From an uncultured Gammaproteobacteria bacterium (GTDB lineage Bacteria > Patescibacteriota > Microgenomatia > Daviesbacterales > UBA10151): a stretch of DNA of 64,000 bases. The translations under genes and the position numbers were made by a program. The notes under the pieces were generated by a model, which worked only from the letters and a program-made list of their open reading frames with translations, was not told where the DNA came from and searched no databases. Each line of letters opens with the position of its first letter. The stretch's first letter is position 1. The stretch spans positions 39,183 to 103,182 of the forward strand of contig CAYUPO010000003.1 in the NCBI GenBank assembly GCA_964446685.1. The letters are read 5' to 3'. Shown here piece after piece: positions 1,809 to 58,363 of the stretch.

Positions 1809-2942
1809 TTATCTGTTAAAATTTTGGACCAAAATATTAAAGTCAAAAATGTCGATTTTGCCATTATTGTTGATATCTGCCTTAGGATTTCCGGCAATAA
1901 AATTGGAGACAAAGGCATTAAAATCAAACAAATCCACATCTCCATCACTGTCTAAATCACCTGAGTAATAGACATTAACCGGGCTGCAAACCTGTTTGAC
2001 AGTTTGACCGCTATAGGAAACTACTGAAGTAATAGTCTGATTGGCTCCCTTTTGGGTAAATGATCCACTGATGGTTTTTGCAGAAGAAGTGGCTGTAAAA
2101 CTGCCCAAATTTTCCCATTTATATGCAAGTGCACTCTCTGCAAATGTTCCAGGGTTCACGGCCATTGTATAAATAACTTGCTCACCCACTTTGGCTGTAG
2201 AATTGCTTGGTGTACAGGAGGTGATAGTTGGAGCAATAATACAGATCTGGGTATTGCAGGCTCTGGTAGCGACTCCTCCATCCAGATTGGTACAGTCAGA
2301 TCCCCCATTTAAAGGCGCTGGATTGGTACAAGTTCTATTCTGAGTCCCTCCCCCGCATGTTTGAGAGCAGACACTCCAAGCGGACCAACCACCATTAACC
2401 GGAGTTAAAATTGAAATCGCACTACCAGTCAGAGACTTAACACCATTATCACTATCTCCTCCAACTACAGCGACTTTGGTTTCAGTCTGATCAAAGGAAA
2501 TACTTACCGGGGATACCGAAGCCTGCAACGCTTTAAAAGTGACAGTTGCTATAGTACCCGGGACAGTTGGAGATTGATTTGGGACTGTGCCAGTAGTAAA
2601 TGTTAAGCTACCTGGAGTAATCTTCGGCGCTGATAACTGAGTGGGTAAATAAGCAGATAGAGTAGCACTTTTCGCTTCTAAATACTGACTGTTATAGTTT
2701 AGTTTTATACTAACTGCTGAAATAGGTAAGCCATTTGGCACAGCATCCAGTGTTACAACAAATTCCTGGCCTGGATTTACCATTTTTGAAGCTGGAGTGA
2801 TTTTTAAATCAGCGGCCTGAGTCAATTCTAAGGCTTTGGGAGAAAAAATTTGAGTTCGCTGAACTAAATAAACTCCTGTTACGACACCGACTAGAGTCAG
2901 AATTGTTATTAATCCGATAAAAAAAGCTTTTCCGTTCAGCAT
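1809..2942 (-). CDS. Membrane-anchored surface protein: cohesin-like beta-sandwich + thrombospondin type-1 repeat + C-terminal dockerin repeats
   Basis: N-terminal TM helix followed by '[13 protein letters not shown]'. Contains '[23 protein letters not shown]...C', a canonical TSP1 repeat. C-terminus '[20 protein letters not shown]...[20 protein letters not shown]' matches the duplicated Ca-binding dockerin segment. Confidence 0.6.
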
Positions 2943-3275: not shown

Positions 3276-3388
3276 GTCTGGCAGTGAGCTATCTTCACAC
3301 AACCTTGCGGATGCATTATTGTCACCGCTGTAGCGTTTGACTACTGAGTTCGGGATGGGATCAGGTCGGACCACTACGCACAAACCAC
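3276..3388 (-). rRNA. rrf: 5S ribosomal RNA
   Basis: The reverse complement reads 'TCTGGTGG...CCGAACTCAGTAGTCAAACGCTACAGCGGTGA...CTCACTGCCAGACC'. The conserved 5S loop-C segment 'CCGAACTCAG(A/T)AGTsAAAC' is present. Helix I pairing between the two ends is present with G·U wobbles. Confidence 0.75.
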
Positions 3389-3528
3389 CAGAAGTCAAGT
3401 ATAGCGTATATAGTAATTAGTATCAAGAGGGAGCTACAAAAGGTATTAAGGGGTAAGTATTAAGTATAAAGAGAAAGACATATAAGAAGGTGACTCCTCC
3501 TTAATACTTTATACTTAACCCTTAATAC

Positions 3529-4029
3529 TTAATTTGATATGCTTTTCTTGCAGTAGAGAATTGGTGCTGATGATGTTCCTAATGCACCGCATCCGGTGGT
3601 AGGAGCGGTATCCACATTGGCTTTACCTGTTGGATTTACGAGTCTTGCACATATTATATAAGAAGTTGCTAATGTATTGGCAGCATTACAGCCATAATAG
3701 GTGTACTGATAGCTGGAAACTTCTCCGGTATTGGGATCACTAGGCGGTATATTGTTTGAAAAATAACCATTAAGCACTGTTAAAGCACTAATATTGCTTG
3801 ATCCATTAATTGCAGCTAAGGCAGGATAGCCATTGTTTGTCGCGTAGTATTGCTCTAAAGCGTTTTGGATTTCGCCGATTTCATTAATTCTTCTGCCATC
3901 CCGGGCATTTTTTTGAGCCTGACCAAAAAGTGCGGTACCAATTACTGAGACAATCGCAATTATGGCTATGGCAACCATTAGTTCGATTAAAGTAAATCCG
4001 GATCTGTTTTGAAAATGGGCAGTCTTCAT
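3529..4029 (-). CDS. Type IV pilin / pseudopilin (prepilin-type N-terminal cleavage/methylation domain)
   Basis: N-terminus 'GFTLIELMVAIAIIAIVSVIG' is the class III signal (G|FTLIE). Cys pairs sit near the C-terminus. 166 aa. Confidence 0.7.
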   Translation of the reverse strand: MKTAHFQNRSGFTLIELMVAIAIIAIVSVIGTALFGQAQKNARDGRRINEIGEIQNALEQYYATNNGYPALAAINGSSNISALTVLNGYFSNNIPPSDPNTGEVSSYQYTYYGCNAANTLATSYIICARLVNPTGKANVDTAPTTGCGALGTSSAPILYCKKSISN

Positions 4030-4093
4030 CTGTAATTAGTATTTCAGTTTTGGCTGATAAAAGTCAACAACAGAGCAAAAAATGCTATTATGA

Positions 4094-5731
4094 ATGTGTA
4101 TGAATATCCTGTCTACCATACTTTTTCTGCTTTCCTCTGCTATTTCTTTCGGATTGATTTATTTTAATTTAAGCCATGTGATCGGGCAGCAGGTGATCTC
4201 GGTAATTTTGCTGGTCTCAGTGGTTTTTTTAGGTAAATTTAATCTGGGAAAACAAAAAGCGCCACTCTGGCAGACCGGAATTGCTATTTTACTCAGTTCT
4301 TTTCTGGTCCAGACACTGATCATTTCCAGTGGCGGGCTCTATAGTCCTCTGCTGATTGTGATTCATCTTTATACTTTAGGGGCTATTTTTCTGCTGAATA
4401 GCAAATCCCCGATATTTTTTCTGCTTTTTACTTTAGGTGTCTTATCTTCTCAACTAAAATACGATCCGATTTTAGTGTCAGCTTTTCAAAATGATCCATG
4501 GACAGCAGTAATTTATGGATTATCATTTCTGATCATTATTCCTCTGGCTCTTTATCTCTCTCACAACTACTTTATTAAAGATGCCTTTACCAAAATATTA
4601 AAAAACTACATCCAGCTGCAGGAGCAAAAAGAGAGTTCGATTTTGACTTCTTTAAATGATCTGGTGGTGGTAACAGACCCTACTCTGGGAATATTGTCAG
4701 TTAATAATGCTGTGGAAAAGTTTCTGCAAATGGATAAACAACAGGTATTGGGTAAAAGATTTTTAGATATATTTTCCTTTAAAGATATGTCCGGTGTAGC
4801 TGGGAACACATCATCTTTATCAATTGACGCTGTAATGCAGGATAAATCCTCCCGCTATGTTGAAGGATATATGCTCGATACTGTAGCCAATATCAAACCA
4901 AAGCCGGTTTTACTCCAGATCCGCCCCCTGACAGATGCCAAAGGAGTAATTACTCAAATTGTCTTTGTGATGAGTGAGCCAAGCGCCAAAAAACAGCAGC
5001 AGGGCCACCAAAATACGCTTGAAGCAATTAAGCGAAAGAATAATCTGCTTGAAACATTTGCTCATCTAAGCCCAAATACTCCATATGAAAGTGTTAAAGC
5101 CAAAATCGGACTTATTACTCATATTGAAGAAGATATCTCTCTAGCGCAGGAGCTGGAAGACCATCAAATTAGTGAAAAACCCGCCTTGGTAGATCTGGTA
5201 GTGCTAGCAGATCAACAACTGCATCAGTCGCAAAGTCTGGCCGATTTTCTGGCGGTCAAAACCGTTTTTAATTATTATGATCCGGAAGGATCGGAAAAAG
5301 CTTCACTTGATCTGCAAAAATCCAATCTTTCTGATGCCATGACATCCCCTTCCCTTTATAGTCTGCCTCTGGAAAGAAAGTTTGTCAGCATTCTGATACT
5401 TAAAATGACTGAAATAGGCATACTGATTGCTTCAGGAACTGCAAACAGAGCTGTCACACTCGATGCATCCTGGGATAATGATCGAAAAGTATATTTAAAA
5501 GTTTTGCTTCCAAACCCAGGTCTCAAACAGGAAGAGTTGTCAGATTTGTTGGTCCTAAATAATCCTCTATTATCCTCCAAAACTCATCTTATTTTTGGGA
5601 GTGGCCTTGAAGGCTTCATCTTAAAAAAGCTCTGCACCTATCTAAACATTCCGCTTAACCTGCAGATAGCAGAAAATAACACCAAAATAGCCATAGAAAT
5701 CACCCTGGATAAATCTGCCAGAACTATTTAA
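4094..5731 (+). CDS. Multi-pass membrane sensor: 5-6 TM + PAS-like + degenerate H-box + GHKL ATPase-like (histidine-kinase-like), paralogue of 13960..15597
   Basis: Hydrophobic N-terminal ~170 aa. PAS-like block 'LNDLVVVTDPTLGILSVNNAVEKFLQ'. 'FAHLSPNTPYESV' resembles the HisKA H-box. C-terminal 'GSGLEGFI' resembles the G2 box. Same length (545 aa) and architecture as the second copy. Confidence 0.45.
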   Translation: MCMNILSTILFLLSSAISFGLIYFNLSHVIGQQVISVILLVSVVFLGKFNLGKQKAPLWQTGIAILLSSFLVQTLIISSGGLYSPLLIVIHLYTLGAIFLLNSKSPIFFLLFTLGVLSSQLKYDPILVSAFQNDPWTAVIYGLSFLIIIPLALYLSHNYFIKDAFTKILKNYIQLQEQKESSILTSLNDLVVVTDPTLGILSVNNAVEKFLQMDKQQVLGKRFLDIFSFKDMSGVAGNTSSLSIDAVMQDKSSRYVEGYMLDTVANIKPKPVLLQIRPLTDAKGVITQIVFVMSEPSAKKQQQGHQNTLEAIKRKNNLLETFAHLSPNTPYESVKAKIGLITHIEEDISLAQELEDHQISEKPALVDLVVLADQQLHQSQSLADFLAVKTVFNYYDPEGSEKASLDLQKSNLSDAMTSPSLYSLPLERKFVSILILKMTEIGILIASGTANRAVTLDASWDNDRKVYLKVLLPNPGLKQEELSDLLVLNNPLLSSKTHLIFGSGLEGFILKKLCTYLNIPLNLQIAENNTKIAIEITLDKSARTI

Positions 5732-5834
5732 ATCAATCCTATTACTGAAGATTTAGAAAGTTACGTAGTAATTTTAAGTATTTTGTCCACATCTGAGATA
5801 GGCTAGGGAAACAATTAGAAAATTTGCAGATCGT

Positions 5835-7160
5835 CTATTTACCAAAATTTGTTATTAATAAATTAAAATCAAAAATATCCACTTTGCCATTGTTATCAAT
5901 ATCACCCACCAGATTTGCTCCTGTTTTATTAAAATTTGTTACCAACAAGTTAAAGTCGAAGATATTTACTACCCCATTACCATCTATATCTCCCGGCTTA
6001 ATCAGAATAATGGAGGACGAAGGACTAGGTTGCGCTTGATTTATTACTTCTTCGCGCCAATTAGTAATATATAGATCTGCTATTGGACCTCCTGAACTTG
6101 TTACGCTGCGGGCTTCAGTTCCTACTCCAATGGCGGTTGTTTTAGCACCTTCCCAGCTGCCTGACACTGGAGGAATGAGTATTTTACGTCCGGTCAAACC
6201 CACTCCGTTTTTATTCTTCTCATCCTTCTCTACCAGATACTTTATAAGACCGGCAAAATCAACCTCTACATTTACCTCTTTGTTCAGAGGAAAATTGCCA
6301 TTGAATAATTGTCCATCAATTTTAATAAACTGGGCAATCTGAGAAGACTTGGCATCAAGAATTGCGTCATCAGTCAAGTAAACATCCCTATTTTTAAAAA
6401 TTTGTATCAAATCAGGGTCGTGAGGATAATCATCTCCCCATCCTGTTAAAGTAAGATTAATTTCGATTTCGTGAGCTGTTTCGTTAATTGTGGTCCCATT
6501 AATAACAGGTCTTTCACCTTCATCCCAGGTTCCCTGCCAGTAAATCAACAGTCGATTAGCGCCACTGGAGACAACCTCGTTAAAATTTATCTTTGTACTG
6601 AATTTTAACTTATCAGGCCGAGCTCTATTTATTCTTTCTCCTCCTCCATTGGCATGGTCCATTAAAACGAAGAAGTTGTAATTATCCACCCCGCATTGAA
6701 GGGGGTAGGTAAAATTATTTAAGTCTGTTTTAAGGTGCACTGTTTTATTTGGCCGATCCAGCTCATCATTGTGATCTAACCAGCCAATTGTGTTAGGCGT
6801 TGACGCATCTAAGGGGTCTTCCTCTCGCCTGAGTTTAAATGATTGAACATCAGGTCCTGGGCAACTTTTAAACCCTCCGTTTAATTGTGCTGATTCATTT
6901 TGTATTGCCACCAACCAATGGTGTTCGTCATTACATTGATTTAGTGGATCGACAAAGTAATTCAGAGTTCCCGGTGTTAAGCTTTTAATGCATCTTTTTG
7001 TCAGATTATAATCCCAACCTTGAGGTTGATAGTTAGGTTGATTCTCCTGGGCTTTTGGTGAAAGATTAGTTTTTTGCTGAACTAAATAAGCTCCAAACCC
7101 AATACCAACTACTAAAACAAGAACTGTTAAGATAGGCGCAAAACCTTTTTGACTTACCAC
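5835..7160 (-). CDS. Membrane-anchored secreted protein with C-terminal dockerin repeats
   Basis: N-terminal TM + 'YLVQQKTNLSPKAQE' family motif. C-terminus 'DIDGNGVVNIFDFNLLVTNF...DIDNNGKVDIFDFNLLITNF'. Confidence 0.6.
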   Translation of the reverse strand: MVSQKGFAPILTVLVLVVGIGFGAYLVQQKTNLSPKAQENQPNYQPQGWDYNLTKRCIKSLTPGTLNYFVDPLNQCNDEHHWLVAIQNESAQLNGGFKSCPGPDVQSFKLRREEDPLDASTPNTIGWLDHNDELDRPNKTVHLKTDLNNFTYPLQCGVDNYNFFVLMDHANGGGERINRARPDKLKFSTKINFNEVVSSGANRLLIYWQGTWDEGERPVINGTTINETAHEIEINLTLTGWGDDYPHDPDLIQIFKNRDVYLTDDAILDAKSSQIAQFIKIDGQLFNGNFPLNKEVNVEVDFAGLIKYLVEKDEKNKNGVGLTGRKILIPPVSGSWEGAKTTAIGVGTEARSVTSSGGPIADLYITNWREEVINQAQPSPSSSIILIKPGDIDGNGVVNIFDFNLLVTNFNKTGANLVGDIDNNGKVDIFDFNLLITNFGK

Positions 7161-7207
7161 CTATTTATAGTGACATAATCTGATCAAGAGAACAATTATT
7201 TAGGCAT

Positions 7208-7231
7208 TAAAAAAGCCCCTTGCGGAGCTTT
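7208..7231 (-). terminator. Hairpin + T-tract immediately 3' of the 23S rRNA
   Basis: The minus strand reads AAAGCTCCGCAAGGGGCTTTTTTAATG. A GNRA-looped stem is followed by T6, ~95 nt after the inferred 23S 3' end. Confidence 0.45.
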
Positions 7232-7639
7232 AATAATTTTTTGGAGCTAAAATTTGTGCTCAAAAATGTGAATACGACTTAGAAGGCTTCTTATACCTGA
7301 CTTTCGTCAAGCGAAACCAAAAAATCTCAACTATGACCATTAGTAGAAGTAAGCTAAACACGTTGCCATGCTTACACTGCTTCCCTATCAACCAGGTAGT
7401 CTACCTGGGGTCTTAGAGATTCCTCATCTTGGGGTCTGTTTCGTGCTTAGATGCTTTCAGCACTTATCAGGAAATAACGTAGCTACCCTGCGCTGCCAGT
7501 TTACTGACAACAGGCACACTAGCGGTTACCTCATCTCGGTCCTCTCGTACTAGAGACAACTCCCCTCAAGAATCCAAACGCCCATACTGGATAGAGTCCG
7601 AACTGGCTTACGCCGTTCTGAACCCAGCTCGCGTACCGT

Positions 7640-7672
<33 letters not shown>

Positions 7673-7705
7673 ACTTCAGCCCCAGGATACGATGAGCCGA
7701 CATCG

Positions 7706-8241
7706 CTCAATTCACAATATTACTATTATGGTTAGACTATACCTTCATCCCTCCTGATGAAATCAGATCAGATCGGATGAGATCGGATGAGATCGGAAAC
7801 TAGGTTTCTGATCTATCTGATCTATCTGGTCTATCAGATCTATCTGGATGGAGCCAATCGTGTTATAAAAGTTTGTTATCCGGGTAACCCGGCCACTTTT
7901 ATCCTAACGTACAAAAGTACGTTAAAGTCGTTACAGTGGGATGTACCTATTGGTACTTCCCTACCTCGGTATTGACCTGTCATTACTGATAGGTGTTCAC
8001 CGATTTTGATTGGTTCATCTACTTTCGTAGACTTTATTTCAAGAAGACACTAAATTAAATTCAAAATATCAAATCCAAAATTTCAAACAAATCTAAAATA
8101 TCAAACTCTAAAATTTAAAACGTTTTTAATGTTTTTATTTTTGAATTTAACCATTGTTTGTTATTTGGTGCTTTGGATTTTGAATTTTTCCAGATATTAC
8201 AGTACTACAGGATTACTCCTGCCGCACCCCAATGTTATTAA
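7706..8241 (-). mobile_element. Group I-like intron in 23S at E. coli-equivalent position 2500 (peptidyl-transferase loop), ORF-less
   Basis: It interrupts 'GGCACCU|CGAUGUCGGCUC'. The 5' exon ends in U, and the intron's internal 'GGGGTG' can pair with exon 'CACCU', giving the P1 U·G. The intron ends in G. An S-like element 'GAAGGTATAGTCT' lies near its 3' end. It contains AT-rich simple repeats and GATCGGATGA/TCTGATCTATC repeats. No homing endonuclease ORF is present. Confidence 0.6.
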
Positions 8242-8278
8242 AGGTGCCGAACCTTACCGTCCTTGTGGACTGTTGGGT

Positions 8279-8315
<37 letters not shown>

Positions 8316-8780
8316 ATAAGCCTTATCGATCCCATGATCAAATAAAGGATCACTTAAGCCTGCTTTCGCACCTGCTCGACCTGTTTGTCTCGCAGTCAAG
8401 CCCACTGTATACTTATGCGCTTGTAACCTCAATTTCTTTTTGAGGTAAGTGGACCTTTGCACTCCTCCGTTACGATTTTGGAGGAAACCGCCCCAGTTAA
8501 ACTGTCCGCCAGACCTTGTCTCACTCCCTGTTTTTATAAGGGTAAGTGGTTAGTCCTGTTAAATTAAAAGAGAGGTATTTCACGGTTGCCGAGGCTCCCT
8601 CCTATTCTACACAATTAATTCAACAAAACAGGGCCAAGCTCCAGTAAAGCTCCACGGGGTCTTCTTGTCCAAGTATGGGTAGGCCGCATCTTCACAGCCA
8701 TTGCAATTTCACCGGATCTATCCTCAAGACAGTCACTAAGTCGTTCTGCCTTTCGTGCGGGTCTGAACTCACCAGACAAG

Positions 8781-9230
8781 GAATTTCGCTCATTCCTATA
8801 TACACTTTGTATAAAATTTTGATGTTAACTTAAAACTTGCGTTTTAATGTGGATGAGTGACTTCCACTCTCTTAATCGCTTAAGAGTTCGGACTATATCT
8901 TGTACAAGTTTTAGCTTTTTTCTTGTACTCTAACATGTAGTCTCTGAGGGTTCGTGACAGATAGATCAGAGTTTCAGCGTAATCAGTGGATCAGATTATG
9001 GATAAATCGGATAGATCAGAACTTGCGTTCTGACTTCTCTGACTTCTCTGTCATCTGATTTCAGCTGATTTGCTGATCTTTCTGACGTCTCTGAAACGTC
9101 TTCCCTGCTGATTGACTCCGTCAATGAATTGTTACTGCTTTTTATAGCGAGTACCATTGCATACTGAGTTATTCCAGCAAATAGTTAGATTACAAAAACA
9201 CTGTATTGTCGCTTCTAAGGCGGCTAATTC
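8781..9230 (-). mobile_element. Group I intron in 23S at E. coli-equivalent position 1931 (helix 69-71 region), ORF-less
   Basis: It interrupts '...CTATGGT|AGCGAAATTCC'. The intron ends in G. It contains 'CAGAGACTACATG' (R element) and 'CAAGATATAGTCCGAAC' (S element), which nearly match the Tetrahymena consensus, with a P8-like hairpin between them. Confidence 0.75.
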
Positions 9231-10725
9231 ACCATAGAACAGTTATAGTTACTGCTGCCGTTCACCAGATCTTAGTCCCCAAGCTCGTCCCAACCTTGCG
9301 GCAGGAGTCACCTGAAAGTTTAAATTACTGGCACTGGGCAGGCGTCAGCCCGTATACATCAGCTTTCGCTTTGGCACGGACCTGTGTTTTTGATAAACAG
9401 TCGCTCAGTGGCGTTCGCTGCGACCCTGAAATCTTGCGATCCAGGGTGGGACATCTTGCTAACTTACGTCCAGCTATATTGCCGAGTTCCTTAAGGATAG
9501 TTCTTCCGATCGCCTTTGTATACTCAACTCGCCCACCTGTGTTGGTTTTAGTACGGTTTCTCTATGTTTCCATTACGAGGATTTTCCTGAAAACAGAAAA
9601 ATTCTTCCTTTCGGCGTCACAACTCACCTTTGTATCATGCACCTTACGGCACATGACAGCCCGACGAATCGGACCAAGAGCGGATTTGCCAACTCTCGCT
9701 AATTTGTTGCTTGCACTAGCATATAGCTAGCGAAGGTTTTCCCATTCTGTCCCCTCTTAAGGGCTCCTAGATAAATAAATTTATTTCGGACTTGTCAAAC
9801 ATAAAAAAGTACAGGAATTTTAACCTGTTGTCCATCCCATACGCCTTTTGGGGGCCTCTGGTTAGGACCGACTTACCCGACCCTGATTAACATTGGATCG
9901 GAAACCTGGGGCATTCGGCGGACTGATTTCTCATCAGTCTTTCGTTACTCATACCGGCATTCTCACTTCTAAACAATCCACCGCCTCTCACAAGTACGAC
10001 TTCACTTCGTTTAGAACGCTCCCCTACCACTTGTATTACTACAAATCTAAAGCTTCGGCAGTACATTTAGCCCCGATAAATTGTCGGCGCCACTGACCGT
10101 AGTAGACCAGCGAGCTGTTACGCTTTCTTTAAAAGATGGCTGCTTCTAAGCCAACTTCCTGGCTGTCTAAGGTCGATGACTTCCTTTAACACTTAATGTA
10201 CATTTAGGGGCCTTAGCTGTTAGTCTGGGTTGTTTCCCTTGAGACCGCTCCGCTTAGCCGGATCGGACTGACTCCTGCTACACAATATAGTATTTGAAGT
10301 TTGATTGGACCGATAGCATTGCTGCCACCAAGTCCATCCAGAGCTCTACCCCTATATTGATTGCACAGGGCTATACCTAGATATATTTCGGGGAGAACCA
10401 GCTATCTCCGAGTTCGTTAGGCATATCACCTCTAACCACAATTCATCCCAAAGAATTTCTGCTCTAGCGGGTTCGGTCCTTCACTCGTCTCTCGACGAGC
10501 TTCAACCTGATCATGGTTAGCTCACTCGGTTTCGGGTCTAAACACAGCTACTAATCGCCCGATTAGGGCTCGCTTTCACTACGGCTTCGTACAGAATACT
10601 TAGCCTTGCAGCAATGTTTAACTCACCGGTTCATTCTTCAATAGGCACGCGGTTCCACAAAAATGTGGTTCCACTGCTTGTCAACATACGGTTTCAGTTT
10701 CTATTTCACTGGGCGTCTCGCCCTT

Positions 10726-10765
<40 letters not shown>

Positions 10766-11699
10766 CGAAAGCATATTTAGCCTTAGCAAATGGTCTTGCT
10801 AGCTTCACCCAGGATTACACGTGTCCTGGGCTACTCAGGTGTTCAATAACGGTGTTTTAAATTTTAAATACAGGACTATCACCCTCTATGGTCTTACTTT
10901 CCAGCAAGTTCTTCTATTTAAAACACATCGCATAGCTTGAATCCTACAACCCTCCAGGCCTATCTCCTTACGGAAATAGGATAATCTGAAGTTTGGGCTC
11001 TTCCCTTTTCGCTCGCCACTACTTGGGGAATCATTATTATTTTCTGTTCCTGCGCTTACTTAGATGTTTCAGTTCAGCGCGTGCCCGCCGCCAACCTATG
11101 TATTCAGTTGGAGGTACTCTATAAAAGAGTGGGTTACCCCATTCGGAAATCTGTGAGTCAAAGCTTCTTGGCAGCTCTTCACAGCTTATCGCAACCATGT
11201 ACGTCCTTCTTCGGTGCTTTCGACCAAGGCATCCACCGTACGCCTTAATGTTGAGTATATTTTGGCTTCAATGACACACAAAAAGCTTCTTGCGAATCTT
11301 TCTGCATATCTAAATTTGGCCTTCCCATTCATAACTATCGATCGGATAGTTATGATGTTTGTTTTACTTCCACCCTTGCGGGTGTGATAAAACTGTCGTA
11401 TTCACATTTTAAAGTACAAACTCCAGGACTTAAGTTACTACGTCTTCCCTGCCTTTGCAGAGTTTTAAATGAATAATTGACGAATTCACCAAGCTCTTCG
11501 GCCCGGATATGAGCTTTCAATCATTTGATTAAAAAAACTTATCCTTGCTGAAAACCAACCCAAACTCTTTGCGTCAAACGTCTTTCATAGGTTGTGGGTT
11601 ATCTTTTATTTATATTTCGGCTTACGCCGAAGAGCGTAAGCTCGCAAGCTTCGCTTATATATGTAGATAACCCGTTTAAATGTCGTTCAGACATTTAAA

Positions 11700-11760
11700 C
11701 AGTCGAACCTCCTACATCTTCACTTTTGACGAAGTCAAAAGGAGCTTCGCTCACTTTCAA
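11700..11760 (-). other. tRNA-derived fragment (duplicate of the tRNA-Ala 3' portion lacking the T-stem 3' strand and acceptor) plus an 8-bp hairpin
   Basis: 'GTGAAGATGTAGGAGGTTCGACTG' on the minus strand matches tRNA-Ala positions ~39-60, then diverges. It is preceded by the perfect hairpin CTTTTGAC-TTCG-GTCAAAAG. Confidence 0.4.
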
Positions 11761-11808
11761 TTTATTGAAAGGAGTTTACTCATTGCATATGCTTCCACCG
11801 GGCAACTG

Positions 11809-11880
11809 TGGACCCGAGAGGAGTCGAACCTCCTACATCTTCATTGCAAATGAAGCGTTCTACCGGTGAACTACGAGCCC
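11809..11880 (-). tRNA. tRNA-Ala (anticodon UGC)
   Basis: Cloverleaf with acceptor GGGCTCG/CGGGTCC that includes the G3·U70 Ala identity pair. D-stem GTTC/GAAC. Anticodon loop TTTGCAA. T-arm GGAGG-TTCGACT-CCTCT. CCA not encoded. Confidence 0.8.
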
Positions 11881-12116: not shown

Positions 12117-13937
12117 TTACTGGACTATTCCAGACAGCTTCAAGAGCTGAACCATTCCGGCGAAGTCAAAGGTGTTGATTACACCATCATCATTAGTATC
12201 CAGTTCATCGATCAGATCCTGAGTTTTATTCCAGTTTGATAACATGATTGACAGATCAACCAGATCAACTTTATTGTCCCTGTTGGAATCACCTTTAACA
12301 AATTGTCCGGCTGCCAATTCTGTGACCTGCAGTAATGGATTAGCTGACTTTACTGCAGCTGTGCCACCCTGTACCAGTGCATTGAAGTAGTATTCTGGTG
12401 GATTATTGATTCCAAAGTAACCATCTGGCTGGAATTCAGCTAACCATGAGCCGGTTGCCTGATTATTCGTATCAAATTTAGCAGATGGTGGCTGATTGTT
12501 AACTGGATCGGTACCGAGCGCACCATCGTCCTCAAAGATATTAAAGGAGACTGTTTTGCCTGCACAGGTACCTGTACCTGTCACATTTAGGTTAACTAAT
12601 TTCTTTTCCAGGATTGGATTACTGCTTGCAACCCAAGTGGCTGAGGATATATCACAAGTGGCGGCTATAGGTGATGGAGATGCAACTGGACTTGGCGCAA
12701 CTGATGCTGAAGCCACAACTGATGGTGATGCTACAGGTGATGGTGAAGGCGCTGCTGATGGAGCCACAGAAGCAGATGGAACAACACTAGGTGAGGCTAT
12801 TGGAGATGGAACTGGTGAAGCAATAGGTGAAGGTGATACTACAGGTGATGGTGAAGGCTGGGCAACAGCAGCTACAGTATAAGTACCACCAACAGAACTA
12901 AGCAGGATGTTGGCATTATCAGAGTTTCGGAATACAGTTGAAGTCCCATCAAAGAAAGCAAAGGCAGAACCAGCGGCTTTACCGGTAAAATAGACAGTAG
13001 CCATCAGTGAAGGAGTGGTTGTTCCTTTATAACCCGGTGTTGGTACACCACCTACAACTGAAATAGTTCCAGTGGCATTATCAAAACTAGTTGGGCTGGA
13101 AACCCATTGTGTTATAAAGCTTCCGGTGGTATCTATTCTGGAAACTGATAGTTTATTTGGATCGAAATTGATTTTGGCTGAGAATAGATTGGCATTTTCA
13201 ACGGCGTTTTTAACCCGGACCTGGATTGGCATCTCAGCTCCAACATTAACCGAACCTGAAGCAGGTGTTAAAGTGAATTCAGCTGTTTTTGTAACTGCCT
13301 GAGGGTCAGTCACTGTCACATCAGAATTAGTCAGACTACCGACCATATCACCTGTTTGATTTAAGGCGGCTACATGAGTAGTAGCAGGATCAATCGTTAT
13401 TTGGGAAGCAGTGGTAGTGGTATTTAAAGCCTTAAATTCAAGTGCTGCAACTGAACCAGTGCCACTTTTGTAGGCATTTACTTCCTGAGCATAAGTTAAA
13501 GCTATTGTCCCGCTTGAACTACTAATTTGAGGGGCAACCAGATCTTTAGCAAAAAAACTACTTCGGGCTACTGTTACCAGCTGCAGATTTTGCGGATTGT
13601 ATTTGATCCCCAACTCCATTGCTGTTGGCTGTTCAGTTTTTGCATCAATTGCAACATTAACCAAAAAAGTTTTGCCTTTTTCGATAGTTACTGTATTTGG
13701 TACAACTTCCAGATCAACTATACCAGCAGCAAAAGAGGAGTTTTTTGGAAATAAACTAGAAAAAAGAGTATTTTTGAAAGGAAGTACAGAAGAGAAGAAA
13801 AGATATCCTAAGATCCCAACAACAGCCACAAGAAGCAAAATAGCCGGTGCGATTACTCCTTTTTGATTTAGATCACTTAAATACCTGGACATTAAGATTA
13901 TTATGTGAATTTCTATATCTAAATTACAAGTAGGCAA
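12117..13937 (-). CDS. Large anchored surface protein: cohesin-like domains + Pro/Ser/Ala-rich linker + C-terminal dockerin repeats
   Basis: N-terminal TM + 'PFKNTLFSSLFPKNSSFAAG' motif shared with 56662..58044. 'GGVPTPG' motif shared with 44507 and 46978. (SPxP/ASPS)n linker. C-terminus 'DSNRDNKVDLVDLSIMLSNW...DTNDDGVINTFDFAGMVQLL'. Confidence 0.6.
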   Translation of the reverse strand: MPTCNLDIEIHIIILMSRYLSDLNQKGVIAPAILLLVAVVGILGYLFFSSVLPFKNTLFSSLFPKNSSFAAGIVDLEVVPNTVTIEKGKTFLVNVAIDAKTEQPTAMELGIKYNPQNLQLVTVARSSFFAKDLVAPQISSSSGTIALTYAQEVNAYKSGTGSVAALEFKALNTTTTASQITIDPATTHVAALNQTGDMVGSLTNSDVTVTDPQAVTKTAEFTLTPASGSVNVGAEMPIQVRVKNAVENANLFSAKINFDPNKLSVSRIDTTGSFITQWVSSPTSFDNATGTISVVGGVPTPGYKGTTTPSLMATVYFTGKAAGSAFAFFDGTSTVFRNSDNANILLSSVGGTYTVAAVAQPSPSPVVSPSPIASPVPSPIASPSVVPSASVAPSAAPSPSPVASPSVVASASVAPSPVASPSPIAATCDISSATWVASSNPILEKKLVNLNVTGTGTCAGKTVSFNIFEDDGALGTDPVNNQPPSAKFDTNNQATGSWLAEFQPDGYFGINNPPEYYFNALVQGGTAAVKSANPLLQVTELAAGQFVKGDSNRDNKVDLVDLSIMLSNWNKTQDLIDELDTNDDGVINTFDFAGMVQLLKLSGIVQ

Positions 13938-13959: not shown

Positions 13960-15597
13960 TTATTTTTGCTTACTCTTTTTATCAATATATAGCACCAGGC
14001 TTAGTGTTCTGGCAGTATTATCATATTCAGAATCGAGAGTAACATTTAATGCAGCGGCGATCTGCTGAGCAAAAATACCTTCCAAGCCTGAGGCGAATTT
14101 CAAATGGCTGCTGCTGCCTAGGGTTCCATATCCTTTGATAAAAAGCATTTTCTTTTCTTCAGGCAGAAGAGAGATCCCAGACACAGCGATCTTAATCCGA
14201 ACAATCGATTCATTATATAAATCTACCTGGACCAAGACCGTTTTTTGAGGGGTCGCCACACTCAGTAAATTAGCTATAAAAATAAGTTTATTTAGTAAAA
14301 TACCAAACCATTTAATTGATATTGAAGTACTGAAATAAGGAGAGGTCATCTGGATTGCAGACAGGTTTAGTCCAGGGGGCAAAGGTGCTAATTTGGTCTG
14401 AGATGAAAAAGCCAGATTATAAGACAGGGTATTGTTGATCAAATGCGAAAATTCCTGATTTTGACTGACCATATTACTGGTGAATTGGGCAAGATCAACA
14501 AATGATGGCACTTTATCATCATTGATCTGTTTAATTTCAGTTAGCAGCATACTATCTTCCCCCCAATTTTTGGCCAGATATAACTGCCCTGCCAGATGAG
14601 CTAATTTCCCTGAGATTAATTTGTCTTTCAAGTCCTCTAAAGTGGCCTGTTGTTTGATCTGAAGAGATTTAATAATCGACAGGGTATCCGGACTTGAATC
14701 AGTCTTAGCGGTAGTTTGAGTGTTAGTAATAATGAAAGTTATTTGTTCAACCGTCCCCTGAAGATCAGCAACAGGCTTAATATCCACCACTACATTAAAA
14801 GGGGCGGGATTATTTTTGGCATACATATTAATTTCGGTTAACCTTTTTTGAACTTTTTGGGTCAGAAAATCTTTAATTAACGGATGATCAGCATTCACAA
14901 AACTGTTATTTTTAGTCCTCAAATACAAAATATCAAAAATCGGCTTACTGACAATTTCTGTACGGGAGAGCATCAAAGCCCGCTCGACGGTATCATTGAC
15001 GGAAAGTATTTTTAAATCCAAATTAGTTATAAAAACCAGTTCATTGATCTCACCTAAAATAATTTTATTGGCTGAAACTTCCTTTTCTAAAATATTTGCC
15101 AGTTTTGCTTTGAGTTGAAACTGTTGGGCCAGAAAATAACAAAAAGGCAGAATAATAAAGTAGGACATAAAATAAAGCGTCAGACTGCCCGGATCCTCAG
15201 CCAAAGTAGTTGCCAGTCTGGGATCGATTTTTAAATGCACTAGCAATCCAAGTGCGGACAGGAAGACAAAAAAGAGTGACGCTTTGAGGCTAAGGAAAAA
15301 ACCAAGACCTAAAGCAAAAAAATGCAACATTACAAAAAATGAGCTGTAAAATCCACCGGTACTGTAAACCAAAAGCTCTACCAACATACTGCTGAAAAAT
15401 AAAAATAGCCATCTGATTACTGCTACTTTCCTGGCATTTGAAGCGGTAAATATAAATTTCTGAAAAAATATCAGTCCAATGATCAGCACGGCCATGGTGA
15501 TGTATTGAGTCTGAAGTGAGGAATTAAAATAAATCAGCAGCAGGGAAAAAAAATTGGACAAAAATAAAATAGTTACTTCAAGCAGAATGATTAACAT
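13960..15597 (-). CDS. Multi-pass membrane PAS + histidine-kinase-like sensor (paralogue of 4094..5731)
   Basis: 545 aa with the same architecture. PAS-like 'INELVFITNLDLKILSVNDTVERAL'. 'KLAHLAGQLY' is H-box-like. 'ASGLEGIF' is G2-like. Confidence 0.45.
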   Translation of the reverse strand: MLIILLEVTILFLSNFFSLLLIYFNSSLQTQYITMAVLIIGLIFFQKFIFTASNARKVAVIRWLFLFFSSMLVELLVYSTGGFYSSFFVMLHFFALGLGFFLSLKASLFFVFLSALGLLVHLKIDPRLATTLAEDPGSLTLYFMSYFIILPFCYFLAQQFQLKAKLANILEKEVSANKIILGEINELVFITNLDLKILSVNDTVERALMLSRTEIVSKPIFDILYLRTKNNSFVNADHPLIKDFLTQKVQKRLTEINMYAKNNPAPFNVVVDIKPVADLQGTVEQITFIITNTQTTAKTDSSPDTLSIIKSLQIKQQATLEDLKDKLISGKLAHLAGQLYLAKNWGEDSMLLTEIKQINDDKVPSFVDLAQFTSNMVSQNQEFSHLINNTLSYNLAFSSQTKLAPLPPGLNLSAIQMTSPYFSTSISIKWFGILLNKLIFIANLLSVATPQKTVLVQVDLYNESIVRIKIAVSGISLLPEEKKMLFIKGYGTLGSSSHLKFASGLEGIFAQQIAAALNVTLDSEYDNTARTLSLVLYIDKKSKQK

Positions 15598-28463: not shown

Positions 28464-31400
28464 TTATGGAGTTTTTTTATTTAACAAATTACTTATCATT
28501 TCACTAACTGAAATTTGATTTAATTCAGCTTTTAAAGCAGCCATATTGAGCTTAAAATTTTGACCTACATTATATTTAACTTCAGCTATATTTTGGAATA
28601 AGCTGTGAGTTGCATTGATGGTTTTATCTATCCAGGTATTACTTTTAGGAATGGTATAAACAATCGGTGGTGTGTTTGATACATTATCAGTAAAATTCTG
28701 TTTAACCGACGCAATTAATTTTTCAGGTGTACCATCAGAAAAGATGATTTCTTCGACTTTAGATTGTTGTAAGTCAGGCAAAGTGGTGATAAAAGCTTCA
28801 ATTTTAGAGCTGCCAGGAGGTGCGGCATACTTATTGGTATAAATGCTTGTATCAGGTGCGAGATAAAAACTGATATTTGTGTTTTTTATATCTCCTGATT
28901 TCCACTTAAAGTTCAGGTTATTGGCAGCAGTCTGAATATAATTGTTGGTTAAAAAAGCCGAAACTTGGTCAAATTTGATCTTTTGCACTTTTTCTCTTAA
29001 CCCAAACTCTGTTGGAATTGTATATAGCGGAGCATCATTATAATAGTAAGCGGTTATCCGACTCGCAATGTCTTCATATGGATAAAAAATATTATTAAAA
29101 ATTAATCCTGGAGGATCACTACTTGCCCCTGCTTTTGCGTATAAGTTTGTTTGAATATTATAAATTGAATCTGAACTTTCGATGACAGTTTCTAATGGCG
29201 CAGTTGCAAAATCTATTGCTGGTAGATGGGGAGAAAACGGTGTTGTGTCTTTGACTAATGTGGCATCTCCAATTTGTTCTACAGGGATCATTTCCAGTTT
29301 TTCAACCGGCTTTAAGAATGAAGGCAGATTTATATCACTGATATCAGATAAAGCATTAGCTGCTGTCTGCTCAAATGTTTCAACTATTTGAGAAGGAAAA
29401 GATGGCGGTTTGATGGGGTCAAGTAATTCTTCTGCCACTTGATAATTTGTTGGTTGGTATTTACCAGTATTTGGATTTAACTGGAATGTAAATCTTTCTT
29501 CTTTATCTGTAATCACAACAAAAATACCATCATCTGTAACTACTTTTTTTGCGGTATGGGAAACTTGGCCGTAAGAATCTCCCCTGGTATATATTTCAAT
29601 TTGCTCTATTGCATGAGGATTAATTCCTCCTGGGATGAGAACTTCCTGCTCCCCTGGGTGATTGGTTAATATCTTACCCTGGAATGCAGGAATACCCGCC
29701 GTCTGACCGGTTGTATAGGTATCAATTGCTCCGCTTGCAGGGGATTTCAACGTAAAAACAACACCGTTTGGAACATCACCACCATCATCAAGAAACATCG
29801 CCCAATTTGAACCATTATATTTTTCTATACCAGTACTCGCATAGGGGGAAATTTTGTTTAAATCTGTTGATGTATGGGTTGAAATTGTCTGTGTCAGCTC
29901 ATCTGCATCGTATCTAAAATCAGTTGCCATTTGATCATTATGTTTTTGAAGTGCAGCAATGATATTTTCTTCTTTCATCTTCCTGGTCCAGCGCAAAGAT
30001 ACTTCCTGTAAACCAACTGCATAGTTTGATGTACCAATTGCTACTGGTTCTTCAAATAATCGCAGGATATCTTCATGTGTTGTGATAGCATCAGTAGTTT
30101 TACCGCCTCTGTAGAGTTTGGCATCAGTATAAAATCTTTCTCTAATATACCGTTCATATGCCTCATAATCCTGAGGTTTTATTTGTAACGCATTCAGGTA
30201 GGACTCAGGTACGAGTCCTCCCACCGGTATGGCAGCAGGCAACTTCATACCCATACTATTTGCTGAGACTTGGCCTTTAAATTTAGCCTCAAACTCAGCT
30301 CTGGCAGCTCTGAGTTCAGATAGAAAATTGTCATAATCACGATGAATGAGTTTTCCTCCAGGAGCGACTGGAGCTGGAGCCAGACCAAATTCATTAAAGA
30401 AGAAATCATAAAACGTTTTATCTTCACTTAGTCCAAGCATTTCTGCTTCATCGGTTATTCCTATTCTCTCAAGTGTCTGTCTCCATTTGGCCATTTCTTC
30501 AGCTTTTTGGCTGCCATTTTTTATCTGCTCAGTCCATGATTCAAGAGGCAGAATAATATCATCATTAAATTCAGACAATATTGGAGGGGTTTTACCGGCA
30601 TTTTCCAGAGACCAGTTCATCAAAGTTCGGGACAATCGACCATTTACATCTCCATATGGATGAATTGTAATCAATCTTCTTTGTAGCTCAGCAGCCAGCT
30701 GGAATGGATCATGGGATGGATTACTTGCTTGCTGGTTGTACCATTTTGCCAGATCACTTAATAATTCCTCCACAAAGGCCTGATTAGCTGGAATAGAGGC
30801 TGTTTTGCCTACTGGACCTATCCGATCTTTGGCATCTTGGGGCAGAGATTCATAAATTTTTCGGCCTTTTTCTGAATTGAGACTTGGGTATTCAATAATC
30901 CCTGCATTTGGATCTTCTCCTCTTTGCAAGAATTCGAGTAATGGATTGTTCCTAATCTCATCAGCATGTTCTTTGGTATAGGTCGCGGGACCAGGTTGTG
31001 AGTAATCCCCTCCCCTCGCTGCCCCTATTCGAGGAGATCCACCAATACTTGGATCGGCAGTTCCTGTTAAACGAATATGCAAATCTCTTATAAAATCAAC
31101 TGTTAAAGGTTGTTTACCATAGGCTCTAGCTGCTGTGCGGGCATTCAGCCAGTCAACCCATGCTTCTTCTCCAAATGTTTTTTCAAGTCCAGTCTGGCCG
31201 GTGATAATTCCAGTTCTGACAAATTTGTCATCTACTAATAAAGCCGTTTCTGCTGTTTTAGCAAGTGGGGTGTTAGTCTGGGTGATTTCTTCAACTTTTT
31301 GAGTATAAGTTGGCAGATCGATTTCATTCTTTTTCAATGAGGCAGTCAATGTATCTATTTCGGTTCTAGCTTCAACCCAATTTGGTTCAGGTAATGCCTG

Positions 31401-34400
31401 CCGAGCAACCGGAATAATATCATCAAATTGTGAAGCAGGCTGAGGTAATATCTCATCAAGTAACTCGCCAGCAGATTTCTGAAAATCAAGCACTACATCA
31501 TCAACGCCATCCGCTGCCGCAGCCACTCCGGGAATATCATCCAAACCAGGAACTGACTGAACCAAAGAACTAAGTGGTCCACAAGGCCCAGTAGAAGCTG
31601 CCAGAACTTCTCCGGTTGAGGCGCCTAGGACATTTGAAGTTTGGTTGGCTTGGGCAAGATTTGATGCTTGTGGAATTGAAGCTAAATTACAGTTAGCTGA
31701 ACCTAAGAAGCCTGATCGTACATTCACATCGGGATTTGTTTTTTCTACCTCTCTGATAAACAGTTCGACAAAATTTTCCTGCTGAAGCCGCATAGCTGCA
31801 AAATCTAGGAAACCAGCTGAAACAGGTTTTAGACCTCTTTCAGCTAGCATAGTATTTGCAATACCTAGGTAAAGTGAGTTGTTTACTTCTCTAAAAGATC
31901 TGGCTACTACACCATACTGGTATGATTCTGCAATCAATCGTAACTGATCTTCTAAAGAAAGGGTTCTATCAGTTGTTAATTGCTGCATTCTCAACCGCAT
32001 TTGTTCAAAATACTCATTTGTAAACCTTGGATCTGGATAGTTATGCGTTAATCCATAGGGATAATTCCAATCCTTACTTGCTCCGCCTTTGGATATTCCT
32101 GGTAATTGCAGGTACTGCTCAACATCAATATTTTTGTTTCTTACAGCCATTAAATTGTCAAAATATGGATCATTGAGATCCCTTGCGACTCTTGCAACAT
32201 AAGTATTTACAATTTCAAAGTGGCCCTCTGATACCATTCTTCCAGGAACAAGAGCACCCCCCTGCATATCTGGTTTATAGGCTATTTCCTGATGAGCAGC
32301 CCTCAACCAATTTAGAAATACATTTGAAGAACTAAAGTTTCGAGGATCAGAAAGTGAATCAGTGACATAAGCCCTTAGTGCAAGATTAGCATTTATAAAA
32401 TTTCCTTTAGAGAGGTCAACTGTTGGCTGATAACCATAGAAATAATGTCCATCTGGATAAATATATGGATGAACCTGTCTCATATTTCTATCTGGTCCAA
32501 TCTCTCCTGCATCTCTGACTAGACCTTTCCAAAAATCAGCTAATTCAGGTGTAACCTTTCCATCTCTCACCGCTATTTTAATTGCACTATTTAGATCACG
32601 CAGTTGGGATGGTGTTAATGGTACTGGAGGTGGATTACCAGAAGTATTTATTCTTTCTAAATCATCAACTAAGGATCCTAGAGGATAAAATGCCTGACTT
32701 ACAGCATCATCAACTCTTGTTGCTATTGGGATTCCAGTAGGGGAAGTAATTACTGCCCCGTCAGTCAGTAAATCCGCACTGTCATCAATCAATACACTAT
32801 CGTCTGTAAGCGGCGGAATCTGAGAAGTATTTTGGCCAGCTTTCAGTATTCTGGCCTGTGCTTCTAAAGATTCAGCCAATGTATCATTACCTAAAATTCT
32901 AGCAACTCTGGCAGCCTCTTCGAGCCCTTCTGCTGCCAAAATAGCAGTAGGACCAATAACAGGCATGCCTGCTAATGGAGTTTGCAGCACACCATCCACT
33001 ACATCTGCTGCAGCATTACCAGCGGTTTGAACTGGTGCAGGGGCAGTGCTAACTGCATTTCTAACAGCACTCGCAATACTGCCTGCAGCATCATCTGCTG
33101 TAGTCACTACTACCTGAACTGCTCCGGTTACATTTTGAACGGCTTGGGTAACAGGTGGGACTGAAGCTGGATTAGCAGGAGCGACAGAATTTGCCTGCTT
33201 TAGTTGAAGATAAAGGTCAATTTTCTCATCAGCTGACAAAAGACTTGGATTTATCCCTCTCCTGGTTAATTCTTCTCCTACTCTATTTCCAACTGTTGCA
33301 CTTGGAATCCTGTATTCAGTTCTGATTTCAGGAATTATTTCAATTTCTAATTCTAGATAAACAGGCTTTAACCGGCTTATGCTGTCATTTAAAGGTGCAA
33401 GTTCTCTGTTAAATTGGTCGATAGCTGCTTGATTGAGAGTTCCTGAAGCTCTGGCCTCCTCAACTCTTTGCATAATAAGTTTTTGCTGCTGAACAGCGTT
33501 TGTATATTCAGGTTTAATTTGATCTAGCCGATTTTCTGCCTGAATTAGTAACGCTCTGATCTCAGGTAATTGGTTTAAGTTTGTTCTAGCTGAAGCATGT
33601 CTTAGACTGTTTTCCAAAGAAATATAAAACGCATCTAGTTGATCCCCCAGATTATCAACTACAGCAGATATCGCAGTATTAGTTCTTGGATTTACTGGGA
33701 TCTCTCTTGCAGCTTGCGCGAAAGGACTTATTGCTGAAACAGAATTAATTGATGCTGGGGCTTGTGTGGTTGGATTAGCAGGAATATTTGGCGCCGTAGC
33801 AGGAGCTGGTGGAGTAGGTGTTTTTGGATTTATTTCATCTGAGATTCTTCTGATTGCAGCGTTTAGATCTGGATCGGTATCCCTCATCCCCTGCCTGATC
33901 AGGGCAGCGCGAATCTGGTCATCACTGACAGGATTTACTAATGTAGCCTTACCTGTACTTATATCAAAATTCACTCTCTGGAAACCGGTAAAATCCATCA
34001 CTACTTCTCTTTCAATATCAGTTACTAATCTTGTAGCTGAAGTTGCTGGATTAATTACTATCGGCACCTGCTGGGTATTAACTTTTTGGGCAGCTGCAAA
34101 TGTTGTGTTAAATTCAGATTCTGCAATAATTTTGATATCACCACTCAATTTGCCGGGTAACCACTTCCCTGGTGTTGCCGCTTTAGCAAATTCGCGGAGA
34201 TTTTGTGGTGCAGTGTGGGGTAAAATAATTTGATCTAATATTACGGTCCCATCACCAGATTTTTGGTATCTGGCAATTATCCATAATCCTTGTTTTCCTG
34301 TATCACTGATACCGAGCCTGCCAGTTGTATCCATAAAGAATGCTACATCAGTTTTTGCAGGCTGCTTCCAAAGTCCAAATCCACTCGCCTCTGAAAACCC

Positions 34401-58288: not shown

Positions 58289-58363
58289 GGGCGCATAGCT
58301 CAGCGGTAGAGCGCGTCTCTGATAAAGACGAGGCCTTTGGTTCGACACCAAATGCGCCCACCA
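58289..58363 (+). tRNA. tRNA-Ile (anticodon GAU), CCA encoded
   Basis: GGGCGCA-TA-GCTC-AGCGGTAGA-GAGC-G-CGTCT-CTGATAA-AGACG-AGGCC-TTTGG-TTCGACA-CCAAA-TGCGCCC-A-CCA. Confidence 0.8.

Follow-up and report, generated by a model that had tools for sequence, protein, structure and literature searches.

An intron-like insert, probably a group I intron without an open reading frame, in the peptidyl-transferase loop of a 23S rRNA gene

The 23S rRNA locus and the insert after U2500

A full-length bacterial 23S rRNA gene is encoded on the minus strand of a 64,000-nucleotide (64-kb) stretch of contig CAYUPO010000003.1, the whole of which is called the window here (gene at 7321-11258; RF02541, 2208 bits). 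The gene is 3938 nt long, against 2925 positions in the Rfam model RF02541, and alignment with Escherichia coli 23S rRNA by MAFFT reveals two large inserts, one of 440 nt (9230..8791) and one of 536 nt (8241..7706). The E. coli copy used for comparison is offset by +1 or +2 from canonical numbering at the landmarks A2058, U1915, A2451 and U2500, and this offset places the inserts after canonical U1931 and U2500, respectively. The 536-nt insert is the subject of this report. It is very probably (roughly 90%) a group I intron without an open reading frame (ORF), hereafter the L2500 intron, harbored by a Daviesbacteria-like member of the candidate phyla radiation (CPR).

U2500 and C2501, the two bases that the insert separates exactly, belong to the conserved, single-stranded central loop of the peptidyl-transferase centre. 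The insert splits GGCACCU from CGAUGUCGGCUC: the gene reads ggcacct followed by TTAATAACATTGGGGTGCGG at the 5' junction and TTGTGAATTGAG followed by cgatgtcggctc at the 3' junction, while the site without the intron would read GGTTCGGCACCTCGATGTCGGCTCATC. An initial annotation of the window had given these insert coordinates and this exon split, a 5' exon ending in U, a G as the last nucleotide of the insert, and an S-like sequence before the 3' splice site. The coordinates and the split proved exact in the alignment and on reading the junctions, where the U and the G are also seen, and the S-like sequence was located as GAAGGUAUAGUCU at intron nt 497-509. The annotation had further proposed that a guide GGGGUG at nt 11-16 pairs with the exon end; the P1 pairing is real, whereas the motif occupies nt 12-17, with G13 forming the U·G pair.

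The insert can be read helix by helix as a group I intron (Table 1). All 44 sequences of the family alignment described below preserve the U2500·G13 pair at the 5' splice site, and 90.5% of P1 cells and 94.9% of P10 cells are paired in that alignment; in the window, P10 consists of 6 bp between ACAUUG and the 3' exon CGAUGU (7705..7700). P1, P2 and P10 of the window intron were read by hand. In the region of P7 that corresponds to the guanosine site, A311 pairs with U508, C312 is bulged and G313 pairs with C507. P7 is 100% paired across the family, where the pair 311-508 is UA in 22 sequences, AU in 12 and GC in 10. By analogy with known structures, the G313-C507 pair would bind the guanosine. 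Both GUAACGACU (J6/7-P7) and UGAAGGUAUAGUCU (J8/7-P7) agree with the family and with the consensus of the Rfam group I intron model RF00028. Between P7 and the 3' strand of P3, a 62-nt insertion in the RF00028 alignment folds into two hairpins, P7.1 and P7.2, the latter with compensatory changes at 6 of 6 pairs. Their placement makes the intron subgroup IA-like, which is as fine as the assignment goes.

Folding into a P3-P7 core had been set beforehand as the test of the group I assignment. The unconstrained minimum-energy fold of all 536 nt yields P2, P3, P4, P5, P6, P7.1, P7.2 and P9, and together with the RF00028 alignment it provides the helices from P3 to P9. The intron contains no ORF longer than 62 aa, and a tblastn search with the endonucleases of six relatives found no endonuclease remnant in it.

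Table 1. Features of the L2500 intron, its companion intron and same-site loci outside the CPR (window coordinates; nt, intron numbering)
Feature	Coordinates	Strand	Remarks
Whole L2500 group I intron (probable)	7706..8241	-	536 nt; intron nt i = window 8242 - i
P1, 5' exon strand GCACCU	8242..8247	-	U2500 at 8242; pairs with nt 13-18 GGGUGC
Internal guide	8224..8235	-	nt 7-12 ACAUUG (P10); nt 13-18 GGGUGC (P1)
P2 hairpin, GUAA loop	8207..8222	-	nt 20-35; 6/6 pairs compensatory; in unconstrained fold
P2.1 expansion, AT-rich long imperfect hairpin	8047..8197	-	nt 45-195; single hairpin in fold
Small hairpin before P3, GAAA cap	8017..8032	-	nt 210-225; RNAfold; counterpart in L103
P3, 5' strand CCAAUC	8008..8013	-	nt 229-234; partner GAUUGG nt 383-388 (7854-7859); 5/6 pairs compensatory
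P4-P5 domain, L5 = GUAA	7966..8003	-	nt 239-276; RF00028 alignment; family pairing P4 100%, P5 96%
P6/P6a	7935..7965	-	nt 277-307; fold; P6 base 98.9% paired in family
J6/7 and P7 5' strand GUAACGACUU ('R' element)	7925..7934	-	nt 308-317; partner AGUCU nt 504-508
P7.1 and P7.2, between P7 and P3 3' strand	7865..7923	-	nt 319-336 and nt 340-377
P8, ~45-bp imperfect hairpin from tandem repeats	7748..7852	-	nt 390-494; base conserved, covaries
Hairpin module in P8	7761..7840	-	nt 402-481; homologous to L1931 P6 extension
J8/7 and P7 3' strand UGAAGGUAUAGUCU ('S' element)	7734..7747	-	nt 495-508; RF00028 consensus AAGAUAUAGUC; mostly invariant columns
P9 hairpin, GUAA loop	7714..7729	-	nt 513-528; 6/6 pairs compensatory; in fold
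Terminal (omega) G, 3' splice site	7706..7706	-	nt 536; direct reading; invariant in family
Companion L1931 group I intron	8791..9230	-	440 nt; after U1931; RF00028 46.5 bits, E 8e-11
Homologous module in L1931 P6 extension	8981..9060	-	nt 171-250 of the L1931 intron; local alignment
Non-CPR L2500 loci			L008, L033, L060, L019, L028, L030, L036, L038, L081, L092, L094, L124

Covariance models, covariation and same-site introns in other bacteria

The search with RF00028 that the initial annotation had recommended returned a match, scoring under the gathering score of the model, at 8066..7713, in which all 253 model positions are aligned (36.9 bits, E 5e-7, 4 kb searched). The alignment takes in P3, P4-P5, P6, the GACU of P7, the long P8, the J8/7-P7 consensus GAUGAAGGUAUAGUCUAA and P9. 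It accommodates inserts of 62 nt and ~50 nt, and intron nt 1-175 lie outside it. A second covariance model, R1, covers 195 positions from P3 to P7' and was built from the L2500 introns of 12 other genomes. With R1, the window intron scores 77 bits (E 3e-17) and is the sole strong match in 64 kb, and other family members outside its seed score 43-100 bits. The same model gives no match to the L1931 intron of the window, which indicates that the L2500 and L1931 introns represent separate lineages or types. In four other 23S loci (L009, L020, L060 and L114), R1 hits 2-4 places each, which suggests that multiple related IA-type introns occur in one gene.

Covariation was assessed on a MAFFT alignment of 44 sequences, including that of the window, with the structure taken from the helices P1-P10 of the window intron and with P7 and P10 treated as pseudoknots. 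Standard pairs fill 91.7% of the cells, compared with 36-45% when the partners are slid by 1-3 columns. Changes on both sides of a pair, that is, compensatory changes, occur in 32 of the 57 pairs, and the observed measures were reached by none of 500 shuffles. Every pair of P2, P7.2 and P9 covaries, as do 5 of the 6 pairs of P3, and covariation extends to P4, P5, P7 and P8. The window intron retains all invariant columns of the alignment.

The family behind this alignment was gathered by scanning species-representative bacterial genomes for a group I P7 strand lying 12-42 nt upstream of a terminal G followed by CGATGTCGGCTCATC. At least 119 bacterial loci have a group I core that ends at this same 3' junction. 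Among the matches listed, to which the counts, identities and hosts in this section refer, ~95 introns were extracted with both boundaries, most of them from CPR metagenome-assembled genomes (MAGs). These ~95 same-site introns share the structure, with abundant covariation. Alignment against CPR introns at position 2500 was another check recommended at the outset, and the checks run from that list came out in favor of the intron assignment. Their sizes fall into two classes, with 66 introns of 230-600 nt and 29 of 700-900 nt. The long members (~30% of those extracted) encode a single-motif LAGLIDADG ORF between P4/P5 and P7, in P6, while the 66 of 95 that measure 600 nt or less are too short for a LAGLIDADG gene.

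The closest 23S exons belong to Daviesbacteria MAGs (L070, 89.5% identity; L043, L007 and L012, ~85%), and the most similar L2500 introns are found in those same Daviesbacteria genomes. BLAST matches of the window intron to L043, L103 and L070 extend over P1-P2, P3-P5 and J8/7-P9. With Daviesbacteria MAGs as the nearest 23S relatives, the host is probably a Daviesbacteria-like CPR bacterium. Several records titled 'TPA_asm uncultured Gammaproteobacteria' (L103, L027, L034, L046 and others) group with Daviesbacteria or Levybacteria in both 23S exons and introns. Since the 23S rRNA of L103 is 89% identical to that of the window, these titles look unreliable. The intron of L070 (L070:2271-2806) is also 536 nt long, with its extra length in an AT-rich palindrome in P6 and in GUUAUGAGUU-type repeats in P8. 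That the extra sequence lies in P6 and P8 and consists of other repeats indicates that peripheral growth recurs independently in this clade. The P6 palindrome of L070 is possibly a decayed endonuclease gene.

L2500 introns also occur outside the CPR. Credible hosts include Omnitrophota (chromosomes), Pirellulales (Planctomycetes), a Coxiella endosymbiont of Ornithodoros and Elusimicrobia, as well as Actinomycetota and Acidobacteria MAGs. A match in Stenotrophomonas maltophilia (L037) was rejected as a chance pattern match.

Outgrown peripheral hairpins and a module present in two introns

The P2.1 expansion is a very AT-rich part of the insert. Its 151 nt contain 20% GC, compared with 39% in the rest of the intron and 40.5% in the window, and the hairpin holds internal 14-18-nt tandem repeats detected by Tandem Repeats Finder. 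The expansion is absent from all retrieved relatives: L070 and L103 have a short hairpin in its place, and relatives in general show a short P2.1 hairpin there or nothing. There is no second copy of the AT-rich hairpin in the window or in the fetched 23S loci, and its interpretation as a repeated or mobile element was rejected on this ground. Its interpretation as a decayed endonuclease gene was also rejected, since the gene of the relatives resides in P6 rather than P2.1 and tblastn found no remnant.

P8 is built from tandem repeats, also detected by Tandem Repeats Finder. Its 5' arm is a 9-nt repeat (TCTGATCTA x4.4, 7807-7846) and its 3' arm a 10-nt repeat (GATGAGATCG x4.2, 7756-7797). The predicted folding energy of P8 is -37.4 kcal/mol, with z = -5.6 for the module at nt 397-487. 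This repeat-built P8, like the 151-nt P2.1 hairpin, was found in no retrieved relative.

Part of P8 has a homolog in the companion intron after U1931. The two modules of ~80 nt align in direct orientation with a score of 42, compared with 20.7 +/- 2.3 for shuffled sequences and with a mean of 15 and a maximum of 26 for a background of 1240 window chunks. The motif GATAGATCAGA, allowing at most one mismatch, has 7 matches in 64 kb, 6 of them within the two introns; 1.4 would be expected by chance, and 7 were reached in none of 100 shuffles. The initial annotation had anticipated much of this peripheral architecture. An AT-rich interior is present, measuring ~151 nt (8047-8197) rather than the proposed ~200 nt, as are the tandem repeats, which have ~4 copies each instead of 2.5. 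Motifs common to the L2500 and L1931 introns were confirmed by the distribution of GATAGATCAGA, and the suggested common peripheral insertion corresponds to the ~80 nt of homologous sequence, located in P8 here and in P6 there.

In the L1931 intron, which carries extra hairpins after P9 and whose RF00028 score also falls under the 50-bit cut-off, the module lies in a 138-nt lineage-specific insertion in P6, and the L1931 introns of L103 and L070 are without this insertion. As the module is present in both introns of the window and absent from both in the nearest relatives, a related hairpin appears to have been acquired in this lineage by different helices of the two introns. Copying between two introns ~1.2 kb apart is the simplest account of its origin. 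The 11-mer TTCTGATCTATCYGATYTATC occurs once in ~119 other bacterial 23S loci among the matches listed. A metagenome scan with TTCTGATCTATCYGATYTATC returned unrelated (TCTGATCTA)n minisatellites and chance matches, with no rRNA intron and no match to the source genome. Signs of mobility were sought for the module: two copies are known, within 1.3 kb of one gene, with no target-site duplications and no dispersed copies.

A bolder and rather doubtful idea is that the ~80-nt module is a structural cassette that moves between the peripheral loops of different ribozymes, perhaps acting as a shared handle that coordinates their removal. Such a cassette could be a tiny mobile hairpin or could be exchanged by recombination. 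The handle might serve a host protein or intron-intron pairing, both introns leaving a single 23S precursor. Pairing between the two modules is not favored, however, as the predicted duplex (-62.6 kcal/mol) is weaker than the separate hairpins together (-29.3 and -45.6 kcal/mol). Enrichment of GATC was likewise dismissed as a signal: the window shows no depletion of this tetramer, and the local excess arises from the repeat unit.

Proposed splicing, competing explanations and context

The anatomy, read together with established group I chemistry, suggests how the intron would be removed. The core would be formed by P3-P8 and P4-P6, wrapped by P2, P7.1/P7.2 and P9. P1 would arise when the guide GGGUGC (nt 13-18) pairs with GCACCU at the end of the exon; in it, U2500·G13 would mark the cleavage site, and a free guanosine held at G313-C507 in P7 would attack the 5' splice site. 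ACAUUG (nt 7-12) would then hold the 3' exon CGAUGU in P10 while G536 moves into the guanosine site. Attack by the 3'-OH of U2500 after G536 would join the exons as GGCACCU-CGAUGUCGG and restore the catalytic loop. The location in the peptidyl-transferase loop of a gene that is usually single-copy in CPR bacteria, as stated in PMC11270868, makes removal of the intron very probably essential. As the intron lacks a homing endonuclease gene, it is probably inherited vertically, or mobile only with an enzyme from elsewhere. Two terminal loops, those of P2.1 and P8, would have grown into long hairpins by tandem duplication; these outgrowths are most likely neutral or stabilizing decorations that point away from the core.

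Several points weigh against a functional group I intron in this host. The RF00028 score of 36.9 bits is below the Rfam gathering cut-off of 50, an operational annotation cut-off that does not correspond to any structural feature. R1 puts the 3' end of P8 wrongly owing to the P8 insertion, and the MAFFT-made alignment leaves P7.2 and P9 just 75-80% paired, probably through misalignment. As peripheral elements go, the hairpins of P2.1 (151 nt) and P8 (~45 bp) are of considerable size; folding could be slowed or misdirected by them, so a protein helper may be needed. Excision is read from the sequence and the predicted structure rather than from RNA reads, and the Daviesbacteria-like identity of the host is deduced solely from 23S similarity. 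Some of these points would also be expected of an intron that is group I by descent and has lost autocatalysis, its long P2.1 and P8 outgrowths and the loss of an endonuclease/maturase gene making it depend on a host protein; alternatively, it would remain unspliced or poorly spliced, as is reported of the L1931 intron of Simkania. A precedent for an unspliced bacterial 23S intron is indicated by the title of reference 28 in PMC11270868, and the lack of an ORF or endonuclease remnant, the unusually large P2.1 and P8 expansions and the low RF00028 score are all compatible with such a loss. Yet the invariant positions of the core are all intact, as are the U·G pair, P10, the terminal G and the guanosine-site pair of P7, and the outgrowths occupy terminal loops, in which insertions into group I introns are usually harmless. 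A retained insert in the peptidyl-transferase loop would, moreover, very probably inactivate the ribosome, and the 23S gene is usually present once in CPR genomes. Loss of autocatalysis is therefore considered unlikely.

Two further explanations are far less probable still. The insert could be an intervening sequence that is cut out by RNase III without ligation, leaving a fragmented 23S rRNA, which the initial annotation had named as a finding that would overturn the intron assignment. Short non-intron insertions of this kind are present in 23S genes of CPR and other bacteria according to PMC11270868, and the long double-stranded hairpins of the insert are possible RNase III substrates. Neither the site nor the anatomy fits, however: a complete group I core, supported by covariation, is present, the ends of the insert are predicted to pair over only ~5 bp (nt 1-5 with 531-535) without a long terminal stem, and the insert interrupts a conserved single-stranded catalytic loop instead of the tip of a variable helix such as H9, H25 or H45. 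Removal by RNase III is accordingly hardly credible. Misassembly, in which foreign intron or repeat sequence was joined into the 23S gene, deserves mention because assemblers often break or misjoin at rRNA genes and because a metagenome assembly is the probable source of the window, whose proteins turned up solely on short Logan contigs of environmental origin. When the 23S region of other strains was sought through a neighboring protein, the Logan contigs ended at the rRNA gene. Such an artefact would nevertheless have to account for base-exact junctions at a site used by ~95 other genomes among the matches listed, for the closest of those introns sitting in the closest 23S relatives, for guide sequences that fit the gene's own exons and for the same repeat module in both introns of the gene, and it is exceedingly improbable. 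A group I intron inserted after U2500 remains by far the preferred reading.

Group I introns at position 2500 also occur in organellar large subunit (LSU) rRNA genes, chloroplast as well as mitochondrial, and are reportedly listed on the Comparative RNA Web site and in the compilation of intron positions by Jackson et al. 2002. Occupation of the same site would imply the same P1 and P10 exon sequences. A full-text literature search for 'L2500' with 'group I intron' and for 'mL2500' returned nothing relevant. Organellar group I introns also carry short palindromic or repeat insertions in their peripheral loops, including GC clusters and double-hairpin elements. The introns of the window resemble them in having lineage-specific hairpin sequence in terminal loops (P2.1, P6 and P8) of more than one intron, but only two copies of the module are present, in one gene, and no signs of mobility were seen.

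Phage introns of subgroup IA, such as Twort orf142-I2 and T4 td, have in common with the window intron the placement of P7.1/P7.2 and the J8/7-P7 consensus AAGRUAUAGUC. They differ in host gene and site, and between P2 and P3 the window intron bears additional hairpins. P7.1/P7.2 wrap the guanosine pocket in the crystal structure of the Twort intron, as summarised in PMC1995217. Bacterial 23S group I introns studied by experiment include those at L1917, L1931, L1951 and L2593, from Coxiella, Thermotoga, Simkania and Synechococcus C9/C1 (PMC1995217; PMC11270868, references 27-30). They resemble the introns of the window in lying in domain IV/V, often several per gene, some with P7.1/P7.2 and with LAGLIDADG genes optional. 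Their insertion sites are other than 2500, and one of them, L1931, is used by the companion intron of the window.

The nearest comparison is with the CPR 23S introns surveyed by Tsurumaki et al. 2024 (PMC11270868). Brown et al. 2015 (reference 2 there) were the first to note introns of this kind in CPR 23S genes. According to the survey, insertions interrupt 82% of CPR 23S genes, and Rfam assigns 45% of these insertions to group I. Among 433 group I insertions, 222 are without an ORF, beside a LAGLIDADG class, and the insertions cluster around the peptidyl-transferase centre. The sites given are 1917, 1931, 1952, 2593, 2604 and 2657, with 23IS9-11 (between 1952 and 2593) described as new for bacteria. 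The L2500 intron agrees with these introns in host group, gene, clustering at the peptidyl-transferase centre, detection by RF00028 and membership of the ORF-less class. The survey gives no secondary structure or covariation analysis for the site and, in the text consulted, does not name position 2500; the window intron adds covariation and a structure read helix by helix.

Taken by itself, the L2500 intron matters little, as one well-documented example among many group I introns in CPR rRNA genes. Introns of this type are known to be frequent in CPR bacteria. The module found in both introns and the extreme P2.1 hairpin rank as modest curiosities. For annotation, the Rfam cut-off misses an intron at position 2500 that a site-specific model finds easily. 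The site is widely used in bacteria, not only in the CPR. With respect to evolution, the locus illustrates how tandem duplication enlarges intron peripheries and that a peripheral module can be common to two different introns of a gene. Should self-splicing hold despite ~240 nt of extra hairpins, the intron would offer a natural gauge of the amount of decoration that a group I core can bear.

Besides the two introns, the 23S gene has three shorter inserts relative to E. coli, at 10927-10981 (55 nt), 9757-9797 (41 nt) and 9700-9719 (20 nt). They follow positions 282, 1414 and 1451 in the numbering of the E. coli copy used for the alignment (offset by +1 to +2 from the canonical one) and could represent extended helices or short intervening sequences. 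The rRNA genes of the window are unlinked: tRNA-Ala(UGC) lies just upstream of the 23S gene, no 16S gene is present in 64 kb, and tRNA-Ile(GAU) is located 46 kb away, at 58289-58363. The 5S gene (3276-3392) is 3.9 kb downstream of the 23S gene, the rRNA region as a whole covering 3276-11880. Three ORFs separate the two genes, encoding a dockerin-like protein of 441 aa, a PAS protein of 545 aa and an N-methyl pilin-like protein of 166 aa. The dockerin-like protein (5835-7160, minus strand) scores 22.5 bits with Dockerin_1, just under the Pfam cut-off of 22.9, and a protein with both cohesin and dockerin is encoded at 12117-13937 (minus strand). Two 545-aa PAS membrane proteins flank the 23S gene in opposite orientation, at 4094-5731 (plus strand) and 13960-15597 (minus strand), and, with 27% identity along their entire length (E 1e-51), are paralogues. 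What is apparently a CPR genome also encodes a thrombospondin type-1 repeat protein (1809-2942, minus strand) and contains a giant ORF of 4822 aa (28464-42932, minus strand).

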